64,000 nt of DNA from Escherichia coli. Lineage in GTDB: Bacteria; Pseudomonadota; Gammaproteobacteria; Enterobacterales; Enterobacteriaceae. The position numbers and the translations under genes are program-made. Where the stretch lies: NCBI RefSeq assembly GCF_048403405.1, contig NZ_CP183129.1, one strand, 5' to 3'. The notes under the pieces were generated by a model. It had not been told where the DNA came from. It searched no databases and saw only the letters and a program-made list of their open reading frames with translations. Of the stretch, positions 1 to 28,331 are shown one piece after another; position 1 is the stretch's first letter; the number at the start of each line of letters is the position of its first letter.

Positions 1-885
1 ATTTGTCTTCGCTCGCCTCTACGGTACGGGTATCAGTCTGACGCGGCATCGGCGCAGGTGCCCACTCCACCAGACCATCCAGCATATGATCGACGCCGAA
101 GTTACCCAGCGCAGTACCAAAGAATACCGGAGTGATTTCGCCCGCAAGGAACAATTCTTTGTCGAACTCGTTAGACGCGCCTTTCACCAGCTCCAGTTCA
201 TCACGCAGCTGCTGCGCCAGATCTTCACCAACCGCAGCGTCGAGATCCGGGTTATTCAGCCCTTTAACAATACGGACTTCCTGAATGGTGTGGCCTTTAC
301 CGCTCTGATAAAGATAGGTTTCATCTTTATAAAGGTGGTAAACGCCTTTAAACAGCTTGCCGCAGCCAATCGGCCAGGTGATCGGTGCGCAGCCGATTTT
401 CAGCTCGTTCTCAACTTCATCGAGCAGTTCCATCGGGTCGCGGATATCACGGTCAAGTTTGTTCATAAAGGTGAGGATCGGCGTATCGCGCAGACGGGTA
501 ACTTCCATCAGCTTGCGGGTACGATCTTCAACACCTTTTGCGGCGTCGATAACCATCAGGCAGCAGTCCACCGCCGTCAGGGTACGATAGGTATCTTCCG
601 AGAAGTCTTCGTGCCCCGGGGTGTCGAGCAGGTTAACCAGGCAATCGTGATACGGAAACTGCATCACAGACGTAGTAATGGAGATCCCACGCTGCTTTTC
701 CATCTCCATCCAGTCCGACTTAGCGTGCTGGTTGGAACCACGGCCTTTTACTGTACCGGCGGTCTGAATGGCCTGTCCGAACAGCAGCACCTTCTCGGTG
801 ATGGTAGTCTTACCGGCGTCTGGGTGAGAAATAATTGCAAAGGTTCTTCTTTTCGCTACCTCTGCGGCCAAAAGGCTTGTCATAA
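1..885 (-). CDS. prfC: peptide chain release factor 3, partial (3' part runs off window start); first ~16 codons are prophage-derived
   Basis: Minus-strand translation from ATG at 883-885 gives [37 protein letters not shown]..., a GTPase G-domain matching RF3. Confidence 0.93.
822..835. repeat. att core copy (prfC-proximal junction), gggtgagaaataat
   Basis: Identical 14-mer at 49057..49070, about 20/23 identity over the extended repeat; encodes the AIISHP codons of prfC. Confidence 0.6.
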
Positions 886-1043
886 TTGTTGTCTCTTTGA
901 TTATGTACAATCATATGTACAAAGAAAAATTCATGCCGCTGATTGTACATTTTGGAGGTATCAGAGCATAGCAGAACATGATCAGTAGGTGTATTTGTAG
1001 CCAAAGAACATTTGTACATGCAGCAATCTTTGTTCCATTGACA

Positions 1044-1102: not shown

Positions 1103-1351
1103 ATGCGTATTGAGATCTGCATAGCCAAAGAGAAAATGACTAAAATGCCAAACGGTGCTGTGGATGCGTTAAAGGAAGAATTAACTCGACGCATCAGTAA
1201 GCGTTATGACGATGTAGAGGTGATCGTAAAAGCCACCAGCAACGATGGCCTTTCTGTTACGCGCACCGCCGATAAAGATTCAGCTAAAACTTTTGTTCAG
1301 GAAACTCTGAAAGATACCTGGGAGTCTGCTGACGAGTGGTTTGTTCACTAA
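1103..1351 (+). CDS. DinI-family DNA-damage-inducible protein (prophage-encoded)
   Basis: 82 aa, MRIEI.IAK...[15 protein letters not shown] resembles E. coli DinI; RBS gaggga; SOS boxes upstream. Confidence 0.85.
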
Positions 1352-1420
1352 TTAACACGTAAAATCGGTAACGGCTGGAAATCATTCAATACTCGCACTA
1401 TCGGAAGTTCACCAGCCAAC

Positions 1421-1458
1421 CGCAGCACGTTCTTGCATACGACGTGTCTGCGGTTTTT
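1421..1458 (+). terminator. putative intrinsic terminator after dinI-like gene
   Basis: Imperfect hairpin cgcagcacg...cgtgtctgcg followed by a T-run. Confidence 0.4.
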
Positions 1459-1777
1459 CAACCATTCAGATACAGCACTCTCATCACATTCATTCTTCCG
1501 CATTAAAGTATATATGACCATATCACCTTAATATTTTTCTTCTTCAGATAAAAATTGTTATCTATGTATACTTTTAAACCGAATCCGTGTAGAGTCTCTA
1601 CCTAAGTTAGTTCACAGCTACCCCTTCAGTTTGCGCCATTAACTTCCTGACTTTTGCCGCTATCTGTAAGCATTCCTGTATACCTGAAACTACAGGGTTC
1701 ATCTACGAACTTTAAGAACACCCAGGATAAAAATTGTCAACTATATTATATATAACACCATACTAATTCGAGGCTAT

Positions 1778-1891
1778 ATGGACAGCATACTGATAATCAC
1801 TTCACTACTTATCATATTCAGCATTTTTAGTCATGCTCTAATAAAATTAGGGGTTGGCATATCCAATAACCCGGACAAAACCGATGTATAA
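1778..1891 (+). CDS. possible small hydrophobic peptide (37 aa)
   Basis: ATG with weak RBS; translation [37 protein letters not shown] has one predicted TM segment; AT-rich context. Confidence 0.25.
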
Positions 1892-1959
1892 GTCAACATA
1901 TCCTGAATCAGACATACAATATTGCAATGAAAACCAATAATATTTTAAGGAATATCTTC

Positions 1960-2193
1960 ATGAAATCAAATGACACCCTAAAGTGGTTCCCCGCGCAGCT
2001 TCCTGAAGTCAGAATTATCCTGGGAGATGCTGTCGTGGAAGTGGCAAAACAGGGAAGACCTATCAATACCAGAACATTGCTTGATTACATTGAAGGAAAC
2101 ATAAAGAAAAAGTCATGGCTGGATAACAAAGAATTATTACAAACAGCGATATCAGTTCTTAAAGACAACCAAAATTTAAATGGTAAAGTGTAA
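1960..2193 (+). CDS. YdfK/YnaE-like prophage cold-shock-associated protein
   Basis: 77 aa from MKSNDTLKWF...; lies next to a PinQ/PinR-like recombinase as in Qin/Rac. Confidence 0.6.
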   Translation: MKSNDTLKWFPAQLPEVRIILGDAVVEVAKQGRPINTRTLLDYIEGNIKKKSWLDNKELLQTAISVLKDNQNLNGKV

Positions 2194-2573
2194 TAAACAC
2201 CCCCTGAAAAATAATTTTTCAATGCATTAAAAAATATCAACAACTACGTTATTCCGCAACAACCTACTTTTTTTACCATTTTTCCACTTTAACAACTTTT
2301 TGCTCCACTTTTCCAAGACCAAACAAATTGAAATCTGGCTAAAACAACATACAACACTATTATTCGTCTTTCTCGAGTCCGCCCGGAGTTCGAAAAACAA
2401 ACCGAGTTAAAGCCATTTTTCAAAAAATCGATTTTAGGTTACACCAAAATTACGGGACTGCATCCAAATTTGTTTATTTTCGAACGTATACATACAAATA
2501 TGTGCAATAATAAGCGAAATAATTTTTGGATATGCATTATGATATGTACACCAATTTCGTATAGAGTCTCACT

Positions 2574-3164
2574 ATGTCTCGAATTTTTGCTTACTGTCGG
2601 ATATCAACTCTGGATCAGACCACCGAAAATCAACGCCGGGAAATCGAAAGTGCAGGCTTTAAAATCAAACCTCAGCAAATAATCGAAGAACACATTAGCG
2701 GCTCAGCAGCAACCAGTGAGCGTCCTGGTTTTAACCGGTTGCTTGCTCGCCTGAAATGTGGTGATCAATTGATTGTGACAAAACTGGATCGCCTTGGTTG
2801 TAATGCAATGGATATCAGGAAAACAGTGGAACAACTGACCGAAACAGGTATCAGAGTGCATTGCTTAGCATTGGGGGGCATTGACCTGACCAGTCCAACA
2901 GGAAAAATGATGATGCAAGTAATTTCAGCAGTCGCTGAATTTGAACGAGACCTTTTACTTGAACGCACTCATTCCGGGATAGTAAGAGCCCGGGGCGCAG
3001 GGAAACGTTTTGGTCGACCACCTGTGTTAAATGAAGAACAGAAACAGGTGGTATTCGAACGAATTAAGTCAGGTGTAAGTATAAGTGCCATTGCCCGGGA
3101 ATTCAAAACCTCGCGGCAAACCATTTTAAGAGCCAAAGCAAAACTTCAGACACCTGACATATAA
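2574..3164 (+). CDS. serine recombinase (PinQ/PinR-like resolvase/invertase family)
   Basis: 196 aa; N-terminal YCRISTLDQ catalytic-serine motif; C-terminal HTH. Confidence 0.85.
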
Positions 3165-3391
3165 AAAATAATCTCGGTGTGAGATGCTTTACGTCTTCCA
3201 AGCCCCCTTCCTTGCCGTAAATGGAAAGATACATCTAATTATAGAATTTATATGTTTTACCCTACGGCAGTGCTGGCCATTCAATATCCTGTGCAGTTGA
3301 CGTATCAACACGGTTCAGCAACACCCGATACTTTTTCCAGGCTTCCAGCAACGGGGTTTCTTCCTCCGTTGCATATACAGCTCACCTTTTT

Positions 3392-3691
3392 TCACCCACG
3401 ATTAACCAACAGCCAGACCAGCAGACACGCCACCACCGGCACAGCAAAATCCATCAGGCTTGCCACATCCCACACGCGCGGATCAAAACCGCCCCACCAC
3501 GGCATGTTAATCCTCTTGCCATGCCCAAACATTTCAATCCAGCGATATTCCGCCTGGGTGTGTTCACGCGCAATGAAGAACGTACAACCGGCTATCGCCC
3601 CGTAAGCCCAGTTCCCGGTAAAAAGACCAACCAGTAGCTGCGCAGCCACAGCACAAAGCGCATGAAGGAAAGGTGTTATATCCATTTTCAT
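3392..3691 (-). CDS. hypothetical small membrane protein
   Basis: About 99 aa with two or three hydrophobic segments, downstream of the tail fiber genes. Confidence 0.45.
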   Translation of the reverse strand: MKMDITPFLHALCAVAAQLLVGLFTGNWAYGAIAGCTFFIAREHTQAEYRWIEMFGHGKRINMPWWGGFDPRVWDVASLMDFAVPVVACLLVWLLVNRG

Positions 3692-3727
3692 CCTACCCAA
3701 TAAAACGGGGCGCTCGGCCCCTTGATA

Positions 3728-4768
3728 TTATTTAGACGCAAGCGCCGCCTCAATTGCAGATAATCTTTGTCTTAATTCTGCGTTTTCTTCTTCCAGTGCT
3801 GTTATTCTGTCGTCTGACTCTCTGGCTACCTGAACAAGCAAGCCAGTAACACCAGAATAATCTACTGTGTAATAACGTTCACCTTCTTCACCTTCCGATC
3901 CGCTTGCGCCGTCCTGATATTTCATTGCGGAACCTACAACTTCTGGGATTGCTTCCAGAGCTTCCTGTGCAATGACACCAGCATAGGGCATACCGTTTTC
4001 TTTAAGCGTGTATGTATAGCCGTTCATTTTACGGATGCGGTCGGTTGCATTATCGATCACCTGAATGTTGTCTTTCAGATCCCGGTCGGAATGCTGGTTA
4101 AATGCGGTGGCATGACATGCACCATTAACGCTTAACATATAGGTGTTATCGGTATTTTTTTGCGCATAGAACATATAAGCGCCACCATCAACACCGACTT
4201 CATAAACAACAGGACGGCTGGAGTTGCCCCACAATTGAGCAGTAACACCAGCATAAGCGGTTCCCTGTGTGTTTAATGTCATGGTTGACCCATGATTGGC
4301 ATATTTGATCTGTAATGTGTCGGTGTAATCAAATTTAATAAGCGCGTTACTTCCACGCTTGCTGTATGACATAAGGCAGTTACCCATTTTGAGGTATCCG
4401 CTGTCACCGGGAAAAATCATCGTACCGCCATAAAGGTTGGTAAAGTCCCAGCAAATGTTTGTCCCGTTATCGTTCAGGTTAAGGCGCGCCATTGCGTTAC
4501 CTGGACTGTCTATCCATTTTTTGAGGTATAGTTCGCAATACGCATCCTCAACACCTGCCGTCCTGTGAGTTGAGCGGAGTTTTCTCCCAAATATAGCTCC
4601 GCTAGTTGGCAATACCTGCTGATACCATGAAGCAGACCAGTCACCAACGATTTCATCTTTGCTGTCTACATATAATTTTGTTGCGTAGCTTCCTTGATCG
4701 TTTTTTAATTTGCTAACGTCGGATTTTAGCGTTTTGATGTCATCAGGAATTACTGTCGATGTAGCCAT
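3728..4768 (-). CDS. tail fiber/receptor-binding protein with C-terminal intramolecular chaperone (peptidase S74-like) domain
   Basis: 346 aa; C-terminal SDRDLKDNI...GYTYTLKENG...ALEAIPEVV followed by a coiled-coil tail, typical of auto-processing chaperone domains. Confidence 0.7.
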   Translation of the reverse strand: MATSTVIPDDIKTLKSDVSKLKNDQGSYATKLYVDSKDEIVGDWSASWYQQVLPTSGAIFGRKLRSTHRTAGVEDAYCELYLKKWIDSPGNAMARLNLNDNGTNICWDFTNLYGGTMIFPGDSGYLKMGNCLMSYSKRGSNALIKFDYTDTLQIKYANHGSTMTLNTQGTAYAGVTAQLWGNSSRPVVYEVGVDGGAYMFYAQKNTDNTYMLSVNGACHATAFNQHSDRDLKDNIQVIDNATDRIRKMNGYTYTLKENGMPYAGVIAQEALEAIPEVVGSAMKYQDGASGSEGEEGERYYTVDYSGVTGLLVQVARESDDRITALEEENAELRQRLSAIEAALASK

Positions 4769-4777
4769 TTTTCTTCC

Positions 4778-5059
4778 TCACATCCAGCCACGAAGTTGAT
4801 GCTCAACAGCAACCACGTATTCATCGAATAATGACGATATTTGCGAATCATTAATGATGCGCACGTTTACAAAATATCCGTCTTCCTTAACACATACCGG
4901 TTCGCCATCTTCAGTCAGTTCTCCGGTTTCTTTGTACACGTTACCTATCACGTCAATAAGAATATCATCCTGCATCAACTCGTCATCATAATAGCCAATG
5001 CTCTCCATAAAGGCCGAAAAGTCGGCCCTGTCGGGAAATTTGAGTGTTAAATCTTTCAT
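4778..5059 (-). CDS. hypothetical acidic protein (93 aa) between the fiber genes
   Basis: ORF overlaps the stf stop by 1 nt, suggesting translational coupling. Confidence 0.5.
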   Translation of the reverse strand: MKDLTLKFPDRADFSAFMESIGYYDDELMQDDILIDVIGNVYKETGELTEDGEPVCVKEDGYFVNVRIINDSQISSLFDEYVVAVEHQLRGWM

Positions 5060-7440
5060 TAGATTGACTCCCCCACCTGAGCATCAGTCAATGCCTTGTG
5101 CCATATTCTGAAATTCCTTACATGACCAAATAAATGACGTAACCCGGCTGTAGTCTGGCCTCCAATACGGATAATTGCGGTGTTCTGAATACAGGACCAT
5201 GTGGTTTTTGTTTCGCTGGATATACGCCCGTTACTTACTGCGCATGTAGACTGATCAGACTTTACACGCATCCCCATAACCATTTTTTCAAGTGATGCAT
5301 TTTCGTTTATCCGTCTGTTAGACCCACCAATATCGCAATAAGGAAATCCGTCGTAATCTGCTGAAGAACCGAAGCCAAGAATAATAGCCGCTCCGGTTTG
5401 ATGACCGCCGGTATCAAAAACACGCGGTGCTGCATTTGGCGTTTTATACCAGTTCTTATGTACCTCACAAAGAACCGTAAAAGGAAGATTATAAAGATTA
5501 TTCTTAATGGGAACTGTGACTATATCGCTTGCGCGGGTCGCCGCCGTCGTTCCTGATATAATAAAAGATGATACACAAGGCCCATTTTCTACTTGTGGGG
5601 TGGCCAGATAAATATAGTCACCAGATACGGTTGCCCCGCCCTGCTTAGGAGAATACTGTATCTGAGAACCTATTTTTAACTCCCCATCAATTGCCTGAAT
5701 TGTTGCCTCTGCAAAAATCCATCCGATAACTTCGTCCTTTCTGACTCTCGCTGTAATCCTTGAGGCAGCGCCGCCTGTCATATTAATTTCAAGCGTTTGT
5801 GTATCAATATACACATCACCAAGAAAAGTTGTTGCGCTACCGTCATATTTATCAAATCGGATACGCAACCTTACCTGCAGTTCTGTTTTAAAACGACATG
5901 AGGTTGTCACGTATTTATTATCGCCTGAGACATCAACTGACTTTGTTGCAGCAATTGATGCCATATTAATGGCTGAGGTTTGCCCAATCAGAGAATCGTT
6001 ACAGACAAACTTTCCATAGGTAAAACCAAAACTATCCGTCCCGGTTTCGGGAACATCCATATTTGACGATCGCCCCCAACTGGCAGGGCTTTCCGAATTG
6101 AGCATGTAGTTCGTTCTTTGCCCCTCAATAAGCAGGCCATCACGTTCAAACCGTGGCTCGTCAATGGCAGCCTCTGTCAGCACACCAGATTTATTAATAT
6201 AGGTTGCTTTCGATGCGCGTTTAAACTTAACAACCTTGTCGCCAGGCATCGTTATTTCATCATCACCAATAACAATCTTTTTATATGACGGCGAAAAGCC
6301 CGTAATCATATCCAGCGAATCGTTAAATGGTATCCACACATCAGGCAGCGGCTGTAAGACATATTTATACGGCTCCGCAGCCTGGCTTGCGTACTCTCTG
6401 GCTGCATCTTCGCTTGCTTTAGCTGCCGTCTGGCTTGCTGCCGATGCTTTCGCTGAGTTCGCAGCCGCTGTTTCGCTCACCTTTGCGTTGGTTTCACTGG
6501 TTTTTGCTGCTTTTTGACTGTTAGCTGATGCAGTGGCAGAAGCAGCAGCCGCGCTTGCAGAACCAGCTGCAGCACTCTCGCTTTCGGCTGCTGCATCCTG
6601 ACTGCTTTTCGCCGCAGTTTCGCTGGCTTTGGCATTCGTTTCGCTGGTCTTCGCTGCCGTCTGGCTGGACTTTGCGTTAGTTTCACTCGTCTTCGCTGCT
6701 TTCTGACTGTTAGCCGCAGCAGTTGCTGATCCAGCAGCTGAAGTCGCAGAACCGGCTGCCGCGCTCTCGCTTTCGGCTGCTGCATCCTGACTGCTTTTCG
6801 CCGCAGTTTCACTGGCTTTGGCATTCGTTTCGCTGGTTTTCGCTGCCGTCTGGCTGGACTTTGCGTTGGTTTCGCTCGTCTTTGCGGCTGTCTCGCTATT
6901 TTTCGCGTTGGTTTCTGATTTTTTGGCTGCTGTCGCGGAGTTTTCTGATGCAGTCTGTGAGGTCGCTGCCGCCTGTGCACTATTAGCTGCATTCGTTTCT
7001 GAGGTTTTCGCCGCGTTCTTCGATGATGCCGCTGCAGTTTCGGATTTCTTTGCCGCCGCTGCGCTCTGAGAGGCGGCTTCGGCGTTGCGTGCCGCTTCTT
7101 CCACCATTTCCTCAAAACGACGCAATGCCTCCGGCATGACATCATCTTCCGTCATGGCACCGAGAAAATCATTCAGCGTACCTGGTCTGGAACCTTCATA
7201 GACGGTAATGGTTCCGGCATGTGAAGGCGGAAAACCTTCAACAAGCAGGATAACGCTGTACTGGCCATACTCAACATCCATGCTGTAACGCCCGGCTTCA
7301 TCCGGATTTTCAGAGGCCACCGTGTTCACCAGTACCGTGGTGCTGTTACGCTTTGCCTTCAGTTGAATAGTGCAGTTCTGTATTGGTTTTCCCGCACCAT
7401 CTTTCAGCACACCTGAGATTTTTACTGCTGCCATATCCAC
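5059..7440 (-). CDS. stf: side tail fiber protein (lambda Stf-like N-terminus, Ala/Ser/Thr-rich repeats, distinct C-terminal domains)
   Basis: N-terminus MAAVKISGVLKDGAGKP..NCTIQLKA matches lambda Stf; C-terminus ends GHVRNFRIWHKALTDAQV (lectin/LamG-like motif). Confidence 0.85.
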   Translation of the reverse strand: MDMAAVKISGVLKDGAGKPIQNCTIQLKAKRNSTTVLVNTVASENPDEAGRYSMDVEYGQYSVILLVEGFPPSHAGTITVYEGSRPGTLNDFLGAMTEDDVMPEALRRFEEMVEEAARNAEAASQSAAAAKKSETAAASSKNAAKTSETNAANSAQAAATSQTASENSATAAKKSETNAKNSETAAKTSETNAKSSQTAAKTSETNAKASETAAKSSQDAAAESESAAAGSATSAAGSATAAANSQKAAKTSETNAKSSQTAAKTSETNAKASETAAKSSQDAAAESESAAAGSASAAAASATASANSQKAAKTSETNAKVSETAAANSAKASAASQTAAKASEDAAREYASQAAEPYKYVLQPLPDVWIPFNDSLDMITGFSPSYKKIVIGDDEITMPGDKVVKFKRASKATYINKSGVLTEAAIDEPRFERDGLLIEGQRTNYMLNSESPASWGRSSNMDVPETGTDSFGFTYGKFVCNDSLIGQTSAINMASIAATKSVDVSGDNKYVTTSCRFKTELQVRLRIRFDKYDGSATTFLGDVYIDTQTLEINMTGGAASRITARVRKDEVIGWIFAEATIQAIDGELKIGSQIQYSPKQGGATVSGDYIYLATPQVENGPCVSSFIISGTTAATRASDIVTVPIKNNLYNLPFTVLCEVHKNWYKTPNAAPRVFDTGGHQTGAAIILGFGSSADYDGFPYCDIGGSNRRINENASLEKMVMGMRVKSDQSTCAVSNGRISSETKTTWSCIQNTAIIRIGGQTTAGLRHLFGHVRNFRIWHKALTDAQVGESI
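6511..6888. repeat. tandem direct repeat, 189-bp period (about two copies), inside stf
   Basis: ctcgctttcggctgctgcatcctgactgcttttcgccgcagtttc occurs at about 6577 and 6766; protein repeat AAKTSETNAKSSQTAAKTSETNAKASETAAKSSQDAAAESESAAAGSA. Confidence 0.8.
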
Positions 7441-7498
7441 TCCACAAAAAAGCCCGCCTGAACCGGCGGGCTGTCATAACACTGTGTTACCTGGCTAA

Positions 7499-8098
7499 TC
7501 AGAATTTATAACCGACACCCACGATGAAACCGTCAGTGCGCCAGTCACCACTGCCGGAACCTTCATAAGCAAGGTCAATGGCCACGGATTCGGTCGGGTT
7601 AAACTGCACGCCAGCCCCCCACGCCAGAGACGTGTTGCTGTGGCGACCGTCATCACTTCCGGTCAGCACATCGTGCGTTTTCCCCTTGTTGTCAGTTACG
7701 CGGAGATAATCCCCGGAGAAGGTCGACACACGGCTGTAAGCCATACCCGCCATCGCATAAGCACTGAACCATTCATTCACGCGTACAGATGGCCCCGCCA
7801 TCATGCTGAACCAGCGGTTACGCACGGAATCTTCATGCCAGCGGGTATCGCTGTAATGCGTTTTTTGCTCATCTTTGGCATTGGCATAACTGAATGACGT
7901 CACCAGCCCCAGCGTGTCCGTAAATTCATAACGGTATTTCACGTTAATGCCCTTCAGGTCATCACTGCCTGGCATATCAGTATGGGTCTGAAGATACCCG
8001 GCGCTTAGTGTGGACTGATGCTCTGCTGCGCTCGCTGGCGTACCAGCGGCAACCAGCCAGACTACTGCGGACAGAATAACAGCACATAATTTACGCAT
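7499..8098 (-). CDS. lom: Lom outer membrane protein (Ail/Lom family)
   Basis: 199 aa with signal peptide, C-terminal ...GVGYKF; position after J as in lambda. Confidence 0.9.
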   Translation of the reverse strand: MRKLCAVILSAVVWLVAAGTPASAAEHQSTLSAGYLQTHTDMPGSDDLKGINVKYRYEFTDTLGLVTSFSYANAKDEQKTHYSDTRWHEDSVRNRWFSMMAGPSVRVNEWFSAYAMAGMAYSRVSTFSGDYLRVTDNKGKTHDVLTGSDDGRHSNTSLAWGAGVQFNPTESVAIDLAYEGSGSGDWRTDGFIVGVGYKF

Positions 8099-8165
8099 AA
8101 TTACCTCTCGCTTTTCTGCAATAAAAAAGGCGTCATTTCTGACGCCCGTATTGGGGTTATAAAAT

Positions 8166-11100
8166 TCAGCTGATACTGATGCCTGCGGTGGCTTTCTTCA
8201 TCACCACAACCAGCAAATCGCTGATACTTGCTGTGGGATACCAGTCATTTACCAGCCATGCTGACACCGAAAACTCCAGCGTCATGTGACCGTGACCGGC
8301 AGGCATATCAATAACGCCACTGTAAATCAGCGTATTATCCAGCGCGGTACGGTTATAAATTTCAGCACCGTTTTTCCGCACTATCAGACGGCATGAGGAG
8401 TAAATATCAGTATGCTCTCTCTCATGTTTAGCGCCGCTGAATGCCACCGCCGGAATAACAATCTGCCGGTCAAACGGCTGATCGTCATAAATCCTGACGG
8501 TAATGGTCCCTGATGGCCACCGTTCCGGTGCACGGGAGTCCCGGGGGAAAGCTTTGCCCACTGTTTTAACGAGATCGCCTTCAATCTGGTTCGCGGACAG
8601 TTTTCCCAGAACCCGGCAGTTCTCGTTAATCGTGACGTTGTTGAGCGTCCCGGAGTTCGCATTCACGTTACCGCTGATATCGGCATTTTTCGCCGTCAGC
8701 CGCCCGTCCGGTGTCAGGGAAAATGCCGGAGGATTACCGCCGCTGGTAATGGTGGGAGCCGTCAGATATTTCAGGAACACTTCATTCATAAATATCTGAT
8801 CGCCCTGACCAACAAACATCGGCTTTGTGTTGCCATTCGCAGGATTAACCATCGCAATCCTGTCCGCCGCCAGCAGCACCTGACTCTGCATACCGTCAGG
8901 AGTATTCTCAATACCGGCACCAATACCCGCGATATAAAGGCGTCCGTCCTGCATCTGCTGCAGCTTCACAGCCCACATGCTGTTCAGGTTATTATTTGTA
9001 TCAACCTGAACCTTCTGTATCTGCTGAATTACCGCACTCTGGTCTTCCAGTTTATTATTGACGGTCTGCGTGATTTCATTGCTGACATCCGTAATGGACG
9101 TCCTGATTTCAGCCAGGTCAGGCGCAAGCTGACCGTTATCAATCTGCGTCCACAGCTCCTGAGCCAGATGGCTTTTCCCTATCTCGCCTTTGAAAAAATC
9201 CAGATAGCCGGATGCATCATCACTCGGCTGGCCAACAGCCTCCACAAATGCCGATTTGCCAACGGTGTTCACACTGCGGATGTAAAAATAATAATCATGG
9301 CCCGGTTTGATATTGATACTGGTGGCTATCCAGTACAGCGCCGTGCCAAGATAGCGGGCTGTGGTTTCAACCTGCCTGATATCGGTAATCCGCGTTTCCG
9401 AGAACCAGAACTCAAACTGTACCGTCGGATCATAAACCGCAAGATGCGGCGTGGCAGTTATCTGAAAATAGCCCGGCGTCAGCTCAATCCGCGACGGCGC
9501 TGCCGGTGCGGCAATCCGGAACGATACCGATGCCGGATCGCCCTGCTGTCCCCACGCATTTACCGCCCGGACCGTCAGCGTGTAACGCCCCAGCGCCAGT
9601 TGCCTGAAGCGGTATGTGGTTTCCGTCGTCCTGGCCGTGCTGACCAGCCGCTCACTGCCGTCGTCCGCTGCCACGGTCAGGCGAAGCAGGAAGCTCACGC
9701 CCTTCACCACCTTCGGCGTGTCCCAGCGGGCCAGTACCTGATACTCCCCGCTGTCTGCGGTGACTTCGGCAGTCAGGTGCTGCACCGCTGGCGGCGTGAC
9801 ACCATTCACCGTGCCGCTCTGGTCACCGTCAAAGTGCGCCCCGTTATCCACGATGGCTTCTTTCTCCGGTACATGCTGCACGGCGGTGATGGCATACGTG
9901 CCATCGTCGTTCTCACGGATACTCACACAGCGGAACAGGCGCTGGCGCAGCGTCGGCAGCTTCAGCCCCCATACGCTGTATTCAGCAACACTGTCAGGAA
10001 CACGGCTCACTTTTACCTTCACGCCGTCGGTGACGGACTGAACCTCCACGCTGACCGGATTGCCACTTCCGTCAACCAGGCTTATCAGCGTGGTACCGGA
10101 GGATGGCAGCGTGATTTCACGGTCGAGCGTCAGCGTCCGGGTCTGGCTGTTCACCGCCAGTACACGACCACCGGTGCTGATACCGGCATAGTCATCATCA
10201 CAGATTTCAATAACATCGCCCGGTACATGGCGAAGCCCTTCTGCGCCGACGCTGAAATCCACGGTCTGCGTTTCCAGCAGTTCCGTTTTAATCAGCCACA
10301 GCCCGGCGCGGTGTGCCTGCCCCCGGCTGGTACAGCCAAAGGCATCCATCTTCGTGACGTTACGACCGTAACGGGCAATGGCCTGCGTGTCCTCCACAAG
10401 CTCTGTCGCCGTCTCCCAGCCGTTGTTCGGGTCAATCCAGTTCACCTCAACGGCATTATGGCGGTCCTTCAGGGCGCTGAAGCTGTAGCGGAACGGCGCG
10501 CCATCATCCGGCATCACCACATTACTGCGGTTATAGGTCCACACCTTATCCGACGGTCGGTCCTGCACGAATGTCAGCGTCTGCCCGTTCCATACCGGCA
10601 TACAGCGCATCGCCGAGCAGAAATCACTGAGCACATCCCACGCCTTGCGCTGTGTGGCCAGGTACGCATTACAGGTGATGCGCGGCTCCGTGCCGCCAAA
10701 ACCATCCGGCACCGACTGGTCGCAATACTGGCTGATGACATACAGCGCCCATTTATCCACATCTGCCGCACCAAGACGTTTCCCCATGCCGTAGCGCGGA
10801 TGGGTCAGCATATCCCACAGACACCAGGCCATGTTGTTGCTGTATGCTGGCTTAAACGTTCCGTCCCAGATACCGCTGTATTGCCGCGTCTGCGGGTTAT
10901 AGTTCGACGGCACCTGCAGAATGCGCCCGCGAAGATGATAATTACGGCTCACCTGCTGGCTGCCGAACTGCTCCGAATCCACCTGCACGCCGACCAGTGC
11001 CGTGTTCGGGTAGCACTGTTTCACATCGATGATTTCGGTGTATGACGACCAGAGCGTTTTGTTCTGCAGCTGGTCTGTGGTGCTGTCCGGCGTCATTCTG

Positions 11101-11645
11101 CGCATCCGGATATTAAACGGGCGCGGCGGCAGGTTATCCACCACCACCGAGGCCAGATACTGTGAGGTGGTTTTGCCCTTAATGGTGATGTCTTTTTCCG
11201 TCACCCAGCCACCATTACGCTGTATCTGAACCAGCAGGCGAACTTCCGACAGATTCCGGTCCCCCTTTGAGGTGGTTTCCACCAGTGCCTGCACACCGAA
11301 GGTAAAGCGCAGACGGTCGATGTTTGCAGACGTGATGGTCCGGGTAATCGGCGTGTCGTACTTCACTTCCGTACCCAGCACCGTCTCGGAGCCGGAGGAT
11401 TCAAATCCCTCCGGCGGTGTCTGCTCCTGCTCACCTGCCCGGAACACCACCGTGACACCGGAGATATTGGTATTCCCCTCACTGTCCAGCACTGGCGTAC
11501 TGTTCAGCAGCACACTTTTTAATCCGTCCACCGGACCTTCAACCGGCCCTTCACTGATGGCGTCTATCACGCTCAGCATCTGGGATGATTTCAGGTTGTC
11601 CTTCGCTTCGCGCGGGGTATGCCCCTTACTGCTGCCTTTACCCAT
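8166..11645 (-). CDS. J: tail tip / host specificity protein J
   Basis: 1159 aa, lambda J-like throughout. Confidence 0.95.
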
Positions 11646-27937: not shown

Positions 27938-28136
27938 CGTAACCTGTCGGATCGCCGGAAAGGACCCGAAAAATGATAATAATTATCATCTACATATCAC
28001 AACGTGCGTGTACGCCATCAAACCACGTCAAATAATCAATTATGACGCAGGTATCGTATTAATTGATCCGCATCAACTTAACGTAAAAACAACTTCAGAC
28101 AATACAAATCAGCAACACAGAATACGGGACAACCTC

Positions 28137-28331
28137 ATGTCAACGAAGAACAGAACCCGCAGAACAACAACCCGCAACATCCGCTTTCCTAACCAAATGA
28201 TTGAACAAATTAACATCGCTCTTGATCAAAAAGGGTCCGGGAATTTCTCAGCCTGGGTCATTGAAGCCTGCCGTCGGAGACTAACGTCAGAAAAGAGAGC
28301 ATATACATCAATCAAAAGTGATGAAGAATGA
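28137..28331 (+). CDS. hypothetical small protein, possible ribbon-helix-helix fold
   Basis: 64 aa MSTKNRTRRTTTRNIRFPNQMIEQINIALDQKGSGNFSAWVIEACRRRL...; beta-alpha-alpha pattern; the upstream in-frame extension crosses cosN and is rejected. Confidence 0.4.
   Translation: MSTKNRTRRTTTRNIRFPNQMIEQINIALDQKGSGNFSAWVIEACRRRLTSEKRAYTSIKSDEE

Follow-up and report, generated by a model that had tools for sequence, protein, structure and literature searches.

Branched tail fibres are known from the T5-like phages DT57C and DT571/2, in which genetic evidence places the N-terminus of the second fibre (LtfB) on the tail-attached first fibre (LtfA) (Golomidova et al. 2016, PMC4728585; Ayala et al. 2023, PMC10713586). 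In the T5-like phage IrisVonRoten (Bas32), the proximal fibre Gp22 has a C-terminal galectin-like domain, and AlphaFold-Multimer predicted that the distal fibre Gp24 is attached to it (Humolli et al. 2025, PMC11990801).

Here, positions 3392-7440 (minus strand) of the window, which means the whole stretch of 64,000 nucleotides that was analysed, are the late-operon end of a complete lambda-like Escherichia coli prophage. Taken as a whole, they are best explained as encoding the host-recognition end of the prophage, a side (lateral) tail fibre apparatus with a two-part fibre, and we hold this explanation to be probable. The gene order is J-lom-stf-orf93-fibre2-orf97-tfa'-pin (Table 1). An earlier note on this DNA had described the locus as composite: a side tail fibre anchored as in lambda, with a repeat shaft that could vary in length and a head resembling a lectin, next to a second fibre that has an intramolecular chaperone; this description holds, and all the features it claimed are present at the same or nearby coordinates. 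Six complete genomes contain the 3392-7440 block in identical form (100%); of 5426 E. coli genomes, 275 have a match on one strand that covers at least 80% of it. The sequenced phages Tritos, HannyBb, PhiR63_1 and 2G7b contain the block at 97–98% identity together with the same pin and tfa stub, while the remainder of the prophage matches PhiR63_1 and 2H10 at 96–98%. The locus type is already well understood, with the cassette present in many sequenced phages.

Table 1. Features of the side tail fibre locus and its surroundings (positions in the window)
Feature	Position	Strand	Basis or remark
pinQ-type serine recombinase, 196 aa	2574..3164	+	PHROG 125 DNA invertase
tfa remnant, last ~37 codons (111 nt) of tail fibre assembly gene	3262..3373	-	translation; PGAP tfa pseudogene
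orf97, three hydrophobic segments, 97 aa	3392..3685	-	ORF, hydropathy; PHROG 1443 (function unknown)
Terminator-like GC-rich hairpin then T-run, between fibre2 and orf97	3707..3721	-	consensus scan, pattern match only
fibre2, 346-aa second (distal) tail fibre	3728..4768	-	PHROG 4563 tail fibre, full length
fibre2 C-terminal S74 intramolecular chaperone, from Ser227	3731-4090	-	Pfam PF13884 at aa 227-278
fibre2 middle, variable beta-rich receptor-binding part	between docking peptide and S74 domain	-	
fibre2 N-terminal docking peptide (putative), aa 1-~22	~4703-4768	-	motif conservation
orf93, acidic 93-aa protein, pI 4.05	4778..5059	-	ORF; PHROG 1361 (function unknown)
stf	5059-7440	-	ORF: 793 aa from GTG; PGAP: ATG at 7434, 791 aa
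Stf C-terminal head (aa 365-793), all-beta, ConA/LamG-like lectin jelly-roll fold, presumed glycan-binding domain	5062..6348	-	
Stf shaft, Ala/Ser/Thr/Glu/Lys-rich, 21-bp/7-aa periodicity	6349..7038	-	21/42-bp repeat families
189-bp (63-aa, nine-heptad) tandem duplication in Ala/Ser/Thr-rich shaft	6481..6893	-	TRF, repeat search, offset scan
Stf N-terminal collar (anchor) domain and start codon	7039..7434	-	Pfam PF08400, PDB 9e7m, PGAP start 7434
Terminator-like hairpin between lom and stf	7451..7472	-	consensus scan: 8-bp stem, 7 GC pairs, and T-run

Like IrisVonRoten, the locus combines an Stf whose aa 138-791 are 52.6% identical to Gp22 (shaft and lectin head are homologous), an orf93 product 39% identical to Gp23, and a second fibre, fibre2, which has the same N-terminal motif at its start and an intramolecular chaperone at its end as Gp24. 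Unlike IrisVonRoten with its T5 LtfA/LtfC system, it uses a lambda collar domain as N-terminal anchor; fibre2 has only the length given in Table 1 and another receptor-binding part, while Gp24, a "T-shaped" dual-RBD fibre, has 574 aa; and the host phage is temperate and additionally carries orf97, a tfa stub and pinQ. The proximal fibre plus second fibre with its own receptor specificity, predicted here, resembles LtfA/LtfB of DT57C and DT571/2 by architecture. However, the N-terminus of DT57C LtfB is phiEco32 gp15-like, and no small intervening orf9x gene has been described for DT57C or DT571/2.

As in the Stf/Tfa system of Ur-lambda, stf follows J and lom and encodes a homologous collar domain, then a trimeric shaft. 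The lambda-like anchor proposed earlier is confirmed by Pfam PF08400 (aa 5-134, E 6e-67) and by the match of residues 5-97 to the solved Ur-lambda Stf collar domain (gpStfN; 9e7m, E 1e-49). By analogy with residues 102-393 of Ur-lambda Stf (PMC12617516), the shaft would be the counterpart of the proximal, trimeric coiled coil of the lambda fibre. In contrast to Ur-lambda, whose T4 gp37-like tip binds OmpC and needs Tfa, this locus has a lectin-fold head, orf93 and a second fibre, and its tfa is only a 37-codon stub. Phage 21 (OL657228; stf, 92-aa ORF, 97-aa membrane protein) has the same Stf type with a largely near-identical head, and its orf9x and orf97 are 54% and 95% identical to those of the window; but it has no gene for a second fibre, 105 aa are missing from its shaft, and the stretch examined contains no annotated pin or tfa stub, with sitABCD genes coming next instead.

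The C-terminus of Stf, earlier called lectin/LamG-like, indeed has a ConA/LamG-like jelly-roll fold, and the head would most likely bind a surface glycan, e.g. O-antigen. Previously, a second fibre gene was thought to stand downstream of stf instead of Tfa. The second fibre gene is there, but the gene directly after stf is orf93, which had been overlooked and whose ATG overlaps the stf stop (TAATG); nor is Tfa entirely absent, since a genuine Tfa C-terminal stub lies at 3262-3372. No Pfam match was found for orf93. In 183 phage records, which represent at least six lineages, a homologue directly follows the fibre gene, and members of the family go with this fibre type in lambda-, T1-, Dhillon-, 9g-, T5- and rV5-like phages. 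orf93 is the positional counterpart of Tfa. Translationally coupled to stf and always found with this head type, it may serve as an assembly factor or adaptor specific to the lectin-headed fibre. Its subtypes follow the presence of fibre2 (83–96% vs 42–54% identity), a correlation that could be mere linkage.

For fibre2, the Pfam Peptidase_S74 match and the Ser227-x4-Lys232 dyad, which hardly varies within the family, bear out the C-terminal intramolecular chaperone that had been suggested. The domain is intact, with the dyad at its start as in chaperones of the endosialidase / T5 pb1 type, and fibre2 also matches the T4-type long tail fibre chaperone region 6f45 (E 1e-3). Unlike the endosialidase / T5 pb1-type proteins, fibre2 would be left with only ~226 aa after the putative cleavage, including a short coiled coil at the N-terminus. 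AF2 gave a poor monomer model for fibre2 (pLDDT 58.7), and a fold search with this model brought no informative match. Compared with a 234-aa allele, the N-terminal motif is kept and the remainder is only 29% identical. This motif is also found in T1-, Dhillon-, T5- and 9g-like phages, and its conservation across lineages makes it most likely that fibre2 would dock on the Stf-derived proximal fibre. Alternatively, fibre2 could be an independent fibre on the tail tip or collar and not on Stf, giving a virion with two kinds of side fibre, which we regard as rather unlikely. Stf heads in loci without fibre2 (phage 21, AH20K059) are largely near-identical to that of the window, so that no Stf feature tracking with the presence of fibre2 was found in this comparison, and related distal fibres of BASEL-set phages (ManiWeber) have their own baseplate anchor (PMC11990801), as an independent fibre would. 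However, the conserved part of fibre2 is limited to its first ~20 residues and a short coiled-coil-like repeat after them, in which no anchor domain was recognisable, and one motif is shared across lambda-, T1-, Dhillon-, 9g- and T5-like phages with unrelated tail tips and anchors, in which the gene with the motif always comes just after a lectin-headed fibre and orf9x. The gene that follows orf9x in nomo, an rV5-like phage, is without the fibre2 N-terminal motif.

The small membrane protein noticed after the second fibre was recovered as orf97 by hydropathy. With an alternative TTG start at 3700 (ORF finder) it would have 102 aa, and no match was found in Pfam, NCBIfam, PADLOC or PDB. Phage 21, Tritos and E. 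coli B Qin have it at 95–98% identity. It is found in the phage collection almost only in temperate E. coli phages, and has a chromosomal homologue in Aeromonas; it may be an accessory membrane protein and does not belong to the mobile fibre cassette. Conceivably, fibre2 and/or orf97 are not virion proteins at all and are expressed from the prophage to mask receptors and protect the lysogen, like StfE2, the e14 Stf chimera that reportedly blocks T2 adsorption (PMC12529663). Tail fibre fragments of cryptic prophages can block the adsorption of other phages (PMC12529663), a terminator-like hairpin sets orf97 apart from fibre2, and both the limitation of orf97 to temperate phages and its chromosomal homologues would fit. 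Such a role is nevertheless improbable, because homologues of fibre2 and orf93 are present in the strictly virulent ESCO3, tunzivis and IrisVonRoten, where protecting a lysogen makes no sense; moreover, fibre2 starts 9 nt after orf93 within the late operon, with a Shine-Dalgarno-like GAGGAAG, and the consensus scan found no excess of sigma-70-like promoters. For orf97 alone, receptor masking may still apply.

The recombinase beside the fibre genes, described earlier as PinQ/PinR-like, is 194/196 identical to K-12 PinQ (99%) and 38% identical to PinE. It is a neighbour of the cassette and, contrary to its earlier inclusion, functionally no part of the fibre locus. The ynfT-ydfK-pin-tfa 3' end neighbourhood also occurs in K-12 Qin and Rac (95.6% DNA identity), where the 3' end of the recombinase gene abuts the tfa 3' end exactly as it abuts the tfa remnant here; the earlier note had missed this remnant at 3262-3372. 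By blastn, similarity to Qin/Rac extends up to 3373 and homology to K-12 StfR begins again at 7082, and the cassette in between (3374-7081; 3.7 kb) replaced the ancestral Rac/Qin-type Stf tip and Tfa. This swap probably took place by recombination within tfa and in the repeats of the shaft, displacing the gp37-like Stf tip with Tfa and leaving the tfa stub beside pinQ. The same shaft with its head, then orf9x and a downstream gene whose product begins with M[AV]TxTxIPxDIxxLK, recur behind unrelated N-terminal anchors, with carriers among T1-like (L015, tunzivis), Dhillonvirus (KarlBarth), Nonagvirus (ESCO3; 94.6% DNA identity) and T5-like phages (L017, IrisVonRoten).

As in Mu G, P1 C and e14 P (Gin/Cin/Pin), a serine invertase gene adjoins the tail fibre genes, and an intact gene of this family only 98 nt from the tfa remnant could suggest that the locus is, or recently was, a Pin-controlled switch in which inversion brings an alternative fibre end into frame. 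This is very improbable. Unlike in those systems, no gix/hix/pix-like sites were found at ≤3 mismatches, the AAACCNNGGTTT core occurs no more often than by chance, TTGGTTTGGGAGAAGG, the e14 crossover sequence, does not occur anywhere in the 64 kb at ≤3 mismatches, and the searches gave no convincing inverted repeats flanking any segment, in agreement with the earlier failure to see an invertible segment. No alternative stf end lies in opposite orientation, all genes from stf to the tfa stub having the same direction; the polarity of the recombinase is also opposite, as pin faces the fibre genes with its 3' end here and with its 5' end in e14. In the 275 genomes, the match covering at least 80% of the query is on one strand. 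PinQ has been reported to invert the e14 P segment in trans (Kirigo et al. 2025, PMC12529663). It has no substrate at this locus, and any action of it would be in trans, on a P segment of the e14 type in another part of the genome.

The tandem duplication in the shaft is supported by TRF (6481-6893; 189-bp period, 2.2 copies, 87% matches) and by an offset scan. In the register first proposed (6511-6699 vs 6700-6888), the copies are identical at 167 of 189 nucleotides and 58 of 63 amino acids, and this divergence, 22 nt vs only 5 aa, is as expected for an old duplication under selection. The best 189-nt window has 89% identity at offset 189, compared with ≤60% at other multiples of 21 and ~22–25% at out-of-frame offsets, indicating a real higher-order duplication on top of the 21-bp (heptad) periodicity. 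An assembly artefact or chance likeness, for which the background similarity raised by biased composition and 21-bp units might speak, is practically dismissed by the identity at offset 189 (88–89% vs ≤60% at other in-frame offsets) and by the fact that hundreds of independent complete genomes, as well as phage genomes, have the same two-copy structure. Repeat number varies among relatives: Stf of AVS0655 has exactly one 63-aa unit fewer (a single-copy allele). Stf of phage 21 and AH20K059 is 105 aa (315 bp) shorter. Shaft length differs between alleles, probably because unequal recombination between the 189-bp copies adds or removes a 63-aa unit, which as a coiled coil would measure about 9 nm.

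In the proposed two-part fibre, Stf would be the proximal fibre, with its collar plugged into the tail tip as in Ur-lambda, followed by the trimeric heptad-repeat shaft and ending in the ConA-like lectin head. Fibre2 would be the distal fibre, trimerising with the aid of its S74 domain, which would then cut itself off at the putative cleavage site, Ser227, and docking by its conserved N-terminal peptide on the proximal fibre. Such docking, if true, would give the virion a second receptor specificity.

Modular two-part lateral tail fibres are a class already recognised, and the tail-fibre locus is one of them, of lambda type. It lies in a lambda-like prophage which occupies the window from about 1100 onward, bases 1–883 being the 3' part of the host gene prfC. 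Three sequenced phages, PhiR63_1, PhiR42_1 and 2H10, match the structural and early regions of this prophage at 95–98%, and Tritos, HannyBb, PhiR63_1 and 2G7b, also sequenced phages, are 97–98% identical to window 3165–7428. The 5.2 kb around the locus recur at 100% identity in six complete E. coli genomes, and at least 80% of this region is present in 275 of 5426 genomes. These matches indicate that the locus is real and common, and that it occurs within genomes deposited as complete phages.

Gene order was taken from six-frame open reading frames (ORFs) and the RefSeq annotation, which are concordant. The prfC-side end of the prophage (1103–2193, plus strand) carries a dinI-like gene, a ynaM/ynfT-family gene and ydfK, followed by the recombinase gene pin, and the same dinI-like/ynaM-ynfT/ydfK block closes off K-12 Rac and Qin, and also the PhiR63_1 record at its end. 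A 300-aa ORF at 86–988 (+), antisense to prfC, is almost certainly no gene. Strong terminator-like hairpins on the minus strand follow fibre2 (3707–3721) and separate lom from stf (7451–7472) and J from lom (8128–8147), so the fibre genes would need antiterminated late transcription.

Genes at and around the tail-fibre locus
Feature	Position	Strand	Basis or remark
J	8166–11645	-	six-frame ORFs and RefSeq
lom	7499–8098	-	six-frame ORFs and RefSeq
stf (side tail fibre)	5059–7434/7440	-	six-frame ORFs and RefSeq; after J and lom, at the late operon end
orf93, 93 aa	4778–5059	-	six-frame ORFs and RefSeq
fibre2 (second fibre), 346 aa	3728–4768	-	six-frame ORFs and RefSeq
orf97 (small membrane protein), 97/102 aa	3392–3685/3700	-	six-frame ORFs and RefSeq
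tfa stub, 37 codons/111 nt	3262–3373	-	between orf97 and pin; left swap point 3373/3374
pin recombinase, 196 aa	2574–3164	+	
ydfK, cold-shock-type gene	1927–2193	+	upstream of pin
dinI-like gene	1103–1351	+	prophage end adjoining host prfC

The lambda-like N-terminal anchor that the earlier note had read in Stf is borne out by Pfam PF08400 at aa 5–134 (E 6e-67), a collar homologous to gpStfN, and by a match of residues 5–97 to the solved Ur-lambda collar domain (PDB 9e7m, E 1e-49). In Ur-lambda Stf, residues 1–91 form a twelve-copy collar round the tail tip and residues 102–393 a trimeric coiled coil (PMC12617516), to which the Ala/Ser/Thr/Glu/Lys-rich heptad shaft of Stf would correspond by analogy.

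A tandem duplication of 189 bp had been noticed in this shaft. It is genuine, and is superimposed on a 21-bp (heptad) periodicity. Tandem Repeats Finder gives a 189-bp period across 6481–6893 (2.2 copies, 87% matches), 6511–6699 and 6700–6888 share 167 of 189 bases, and the 63-aa protein copies are identical at 58 of 63 residues. In an offset scan of the shaft, the best 189-nt window reaches 89% at offset 189, against at most 60% for other multiples of 21 and 22–25% for out-of-frame offsets. The number of repeats varies among relatives, as the earlier note had proposed to check. For example, Stf of AVS0655 (E. coli) lacks exactly one 63-aa unit, and 105 aa are absent from that of phage 21 and strain AH20K059. 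One 63-aa unit is nine heptads, or roughly 9 nm by the rise per residue if the shaft is an alpha-helical coiled coil. The stf shaft is carried by roughly 970 E. coli genomes. Among 60 evenly spaced matches, which give an estimate and no exhaustive count, 26 have two copies, one is shorter by 191 bp (one copy) and 7 are shorter by 315 bp. This natural variation supports the view that fibre length may be changed through recombination at the repeat.

The annotation of stf differs between RefSeq records (comparison loci L001, 8660–11035, and L002, 3660–6035) despite 100% identity over the 5.2-kb query. In MS 69-1 it is a single 791-aa gene; in EC28 it is divided into an N-terminal pseudogene and a CDS of 416 aa labelled "phage head spike fiber domain", and the repeat shaft carries no annotation. 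The split in EC28 looks like an annotation artefact from the repetitive shaft.

For the C-terminus of Stf a lectin/LamG-like motif had been suggested. Pfam finds only PF08400 and CarboxypepD_reg in Stf, with no Laminin_G_3-type profile match and aa 365–793 empty, and NCBIfam assigns a "GTA head spike fiber" domain to the head, whose family is very large (2015 representatives at E<=1e-3). An AlphaFold2 model of the head from a 50-sequence alignment (pLDDT 93.3, pTM 0.89) matches carbohydrate-binding domain 4 of arabinanase AbnA (score 20.4), phage Pa193 gp46 (17.5), the lectin-like Hc-N domains of clostridial neurotoxins (16–18), sialic-acid-binding CBM40 modules and pentraxins (14–16) and laminin-G domains (about 12), and Foldseek is concordant with these lectin-type matches. 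At the level of fold in the predicted model, the suggestion is thus confirmed: the distal part of Stf is a jelly-roll beta-sandwich of the Concanavalin A-like lectin/LamG type. Given this fold, and given what lateral fibres do in related phages (PMC8594841, PMC11990801), we infer that the head may bind sugar. Within the head, 5880–5915 is a 36-nt inverted match (81% complementary) to 28121–28156, 22 kb apart, probably by chance.

The gene that follows stf is orf93, whose ATG overlaps the stf stop codon (TAATG) and whose product is acidic (pI 4.05). Searches of the protein against Pfam, NCBIfam and PDB sequences gave no meaningful match, and none to Tfa. By tblastn, homologues are found in 183 phage records, including lambda-like phages, T1-like Drexlerviridae, Dhillonvirus, Nonagvirus/Seuratvirus, T5-like Tequintavirus and rV5-like myoviruses, and among the matches listed, in every record that has annotation, they sit at a tail fibre gene or immediately behind it. 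In the four loci examined, the fibre gene before the orf93 homologue (orf9x) ends in RIGGQT.TG.RHLFGH.R.FR.W...LTD. By these comparisons, orf93 is the constant partner of this lectin head type, in the position that Tfa has in lambda. It may be an assembly factor or an adaptor, and the data fit either alike.

The earlier note had placed the second fibre directly downstream of stf, overlooking orf93, and had correctly given it an intramolecular chaperone. From end to end the fibre2 protein matches PHROG 4563 (tail fibre); it carries Peptidase_S74 (PF13884) at aa 227–278 (Pfam, E 1.5e-13) and resembles the T4-type long tail fibre chaperone region 6f45 (E 1e-3). SDRDLK at aa 227–232 supplies the Ser-x4-Lys dyad at the predicted cleavage site, and of 28 family members at least 90% share S227 and K232. 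Autoproteolytic release of the S74 domain after trimerisation is predicted. Family members consist of an N-terminus of the form MATSTVIPxDIxxLKxDVS, LKxDxS repeats in varying number, a variable middle and the chaperone domain. E. coli B Qin and AVS0655 carry an allele of 234 aa that has this N-terminal motif and is elsewhere only 29% identical. The AlphaFold2 monomer of fibre2 is poor (pLDDT 58.7), and the only Foldseek matches, T4 gp34-like and weak (E 0.02), were discarded as evidence in view of this low-confidence model.

The N-terminal motif is MATSTVIPDDIKTLKSDVSKLK in fibre2, MVTKTVIPTDITKLKN in Gp24 of IrisVonRoten, MATVTVIPSDITKLKN in tunzivis gp74 and MVTKTNIPADITALKN in KarlBarth gp30. 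The gene after orf9x opens with it in tunzivis (T1-like), KarlBarth (Dhillonvirus), IrisVonRoten, a metagenomic T5-like contig and ESCO3 (Nonagvirus). The remainder of these distal proteins is described as unrelated in sequence; that of ESCO3 is 92% identical to fibre2 over 333 aa. Among the upstream fibres, the N-terminal anchor varies by lineage (lambda collar, T1-type, T5 LtfA type beside LtfC). Since one short N-terminal peptide is kept across unrelated tail tips, the distal fibre must, on this comparison, dock on a part that travels with it, and the partner of fibre2 would have to be the shaft/head or orf9x. Docking onto the proximal fibre would agree with published AlphaFold-Multimer models, themselves a prediction, in which the distal fibre of IrisVonRoten is joined to the proximal one (PMC11990801). 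A bolder reading, which we think improbable, is that shaft plus lectin head, orf9x and a fibre opening MxTxTxIPxDIxxLK make up a self-contained plug-in unit moving between at least five siphovirus lineages, in which orf93 would be no transient chaperone but a structural adaptor that stays in the virion and clamps any compatible distal fibre, by its N-terminal peptide, onto the lectin head. If true, the unit with its adaptor would be a universal socket for swapping receptor-binding proteins.

The ends of the cassette are sharp. Homology to K-12 Qin/Rac, at 95.6%, begins at about 1358, takes in ynfT-ydfK-pin, the intergenic stretch and the final 111 nt of tfa, and breaks off at 3373, which is 18 nt away from the stop of orf97. 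Sequence homologous to Rac reappears at 7082, within the N-terminal region of Stf. Based on these two limits, a 3.7-kb cassette of shaft, lectin head, orf93, fibre2 and orf97 replaced the ancestral gp37-like tip and Tfa, with swap junctions in the repetitive shaft and inside tfa. The earlier note missed the tfa stub, which is annotated as a pseudogene and translates into a typical Tfa C-terminus. Several variants of the cassette exist: phage 21 and AH20K059 are without fibre2, E. coli B Qin and AVS0655 have the 234-aa fibre2, and ESCO3 has head, orf93 and fibre2 at 94.6% DNA identity. In the Qin prophage of E. coli B strain C2566 (L008, 3267–6391), an stf of this same type is cut short at its 5' end by an IS3 insertion, while orf93, a second fibre of 234 aa, orf97, the stub of tfa and pinQ are intact.

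The adjacent recombinase had been described as PinQ/PinR-like, with no invertible segment in sight, and both points stand. Its product is 194/196 identical (99%) to K-12 PinQ and 38% to PinE, and falls in the PHROG DNA invertase family. At up to 3 mismatches, neither the 26-bp Gin/Hin/Pin crossover consensus (gix/hix-type) nor the e14 crossover site TTGGTTTGGGAGAAGG has a match in the window, and the core AAACCNNGGTTT at 1 mismatch has two matches elsewhere in it, no more than chance. The search for inverted crossover sites thus found none, and inverted repeats in 2300–7700 (5.4 kb) and in the whole 64 kb are only short, weak, chance-type pairs. No oppositely oriented alternative fibre C-termini with tfa were found either, the fibre genes and the tfa stub lying on one strand. 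It is with its 3' end that pin is turned toward the fibre genes; the e14 gene has its 5' end on that side. PinQ (and PinR) has been reported to invert the 1797-bp e14 P segment in trans (Kirigo et al. 2025, PMC12529663), the point that corrects the earlier description. Because no local substrate was found and PinQ is reported to act in trans, pin is a conserved neighbour inherited from a Rac/Qin-type ancestor and not a controller of the fibre locus.

The small membrane protein noted after the second fibre is orf97; it has three hydrophobic segments, and one of its loops (AREHTQAEYRWIE...MPWWGGFDPR) is highly conserved. Sequence searches against Pfam, NCBIfam and PDB yielded nothing meaningful, no database assigns orf97 a function, and PADLOC defence models matched none of orf93, orf97, fibre2 and pin. 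Phage 21, Tritos and E. coli B Qin carry it at 95–98% identity; it is absent from the virulent phages with the rest of the cassette, and in the phage collection is almost confined to temperate E. coli phages. Homologues of 58–60% identity are known from Aeromonas, where the gene stands alone on the chromosome, and from a Comamonas prophage, where it follows a giant GpJ and where the lectin head and orf93 were sought and are absent. A terminator-like hairpin precedes orf97, and a promoter scan gave no excess over shuffles. The mobile fibre unit does not include orf97. We guess at an envelope function related to lysogeny; a bolder reading, again improbable, is that the lysogen expresses it in its envelope to mask the receptor of the lectin-headed fibre type. 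The family is unnamed, its members in Escherichia, Aeromonas and Comamonas being about 60% identical (L013, 6001–6309; L012, 6001–6303), and the neighbours of the Aeromonas rivipollensis homologue on its two sides are genes for pirin, a RIO1-kinase and a lipid A acyltransferase.

Compared with known systems, the locus shares the collar domain and the position after J and lom with lambda-type Stf. However, lambda Stf has a T4 gp37-like tip and a downstream gp38-like Tfa, in place of which a ConA-like head, orf93 and the 111-nt tfa stub are found here. A close parallel is IrisVonRoten: Stf aa 138–791 are 52.6% identical to its proximal fibre Gp22 over 744 aligned positions, with a shared lectin-like C-terminal domain, orf93 is 39% identical to Gp23, and the distal fibre gene Gp24 lies downstream with the conserved N-terminal motif, as does fibre2, its physical attachment being predicted. 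The branched LtfA/LtfB fibres of DT57C, which are genetically supported, offer a functional precedent (PMC4728585, PMC10713586). With Peptidase S74 chaperone fibres, fibre2 shares the C-terminal S74 domain and the Ser-Lys dyad. An adjacent Gin/Hin/Pin-family serine invertase is common to this locus and the Mu G, P1 C and e14 P switches, but those have inverted crossover sites and two opposed fibre ends, neither of which is found here.

In summary, the earlier description was largely right, the corrections being orf93, the tfa stub and the trans-acting PinQ. No new principle is evident. PinQ in this setting illustrates that an invertase adjoining fibre genes need not act locally. Side or lateral tail fibres set the strains that a phage can reach, and are swapped by engineers to retarget phages and delivery particles. 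Here, a lambda-type temperate phage that exists in culture shows the portable cassette of T1-, T5-, 9g- and Dhillon-like virulent phages, with clean recombination scars, the tfa stub on one side and the shaft-repeat junction on the other, and with natural shaft-length alleles. A culturable phage with these features makes a convenient genetic system (lambda tools, ECOR hosts) for studying two-part fibre assembly and the role of the 93-aa partner.
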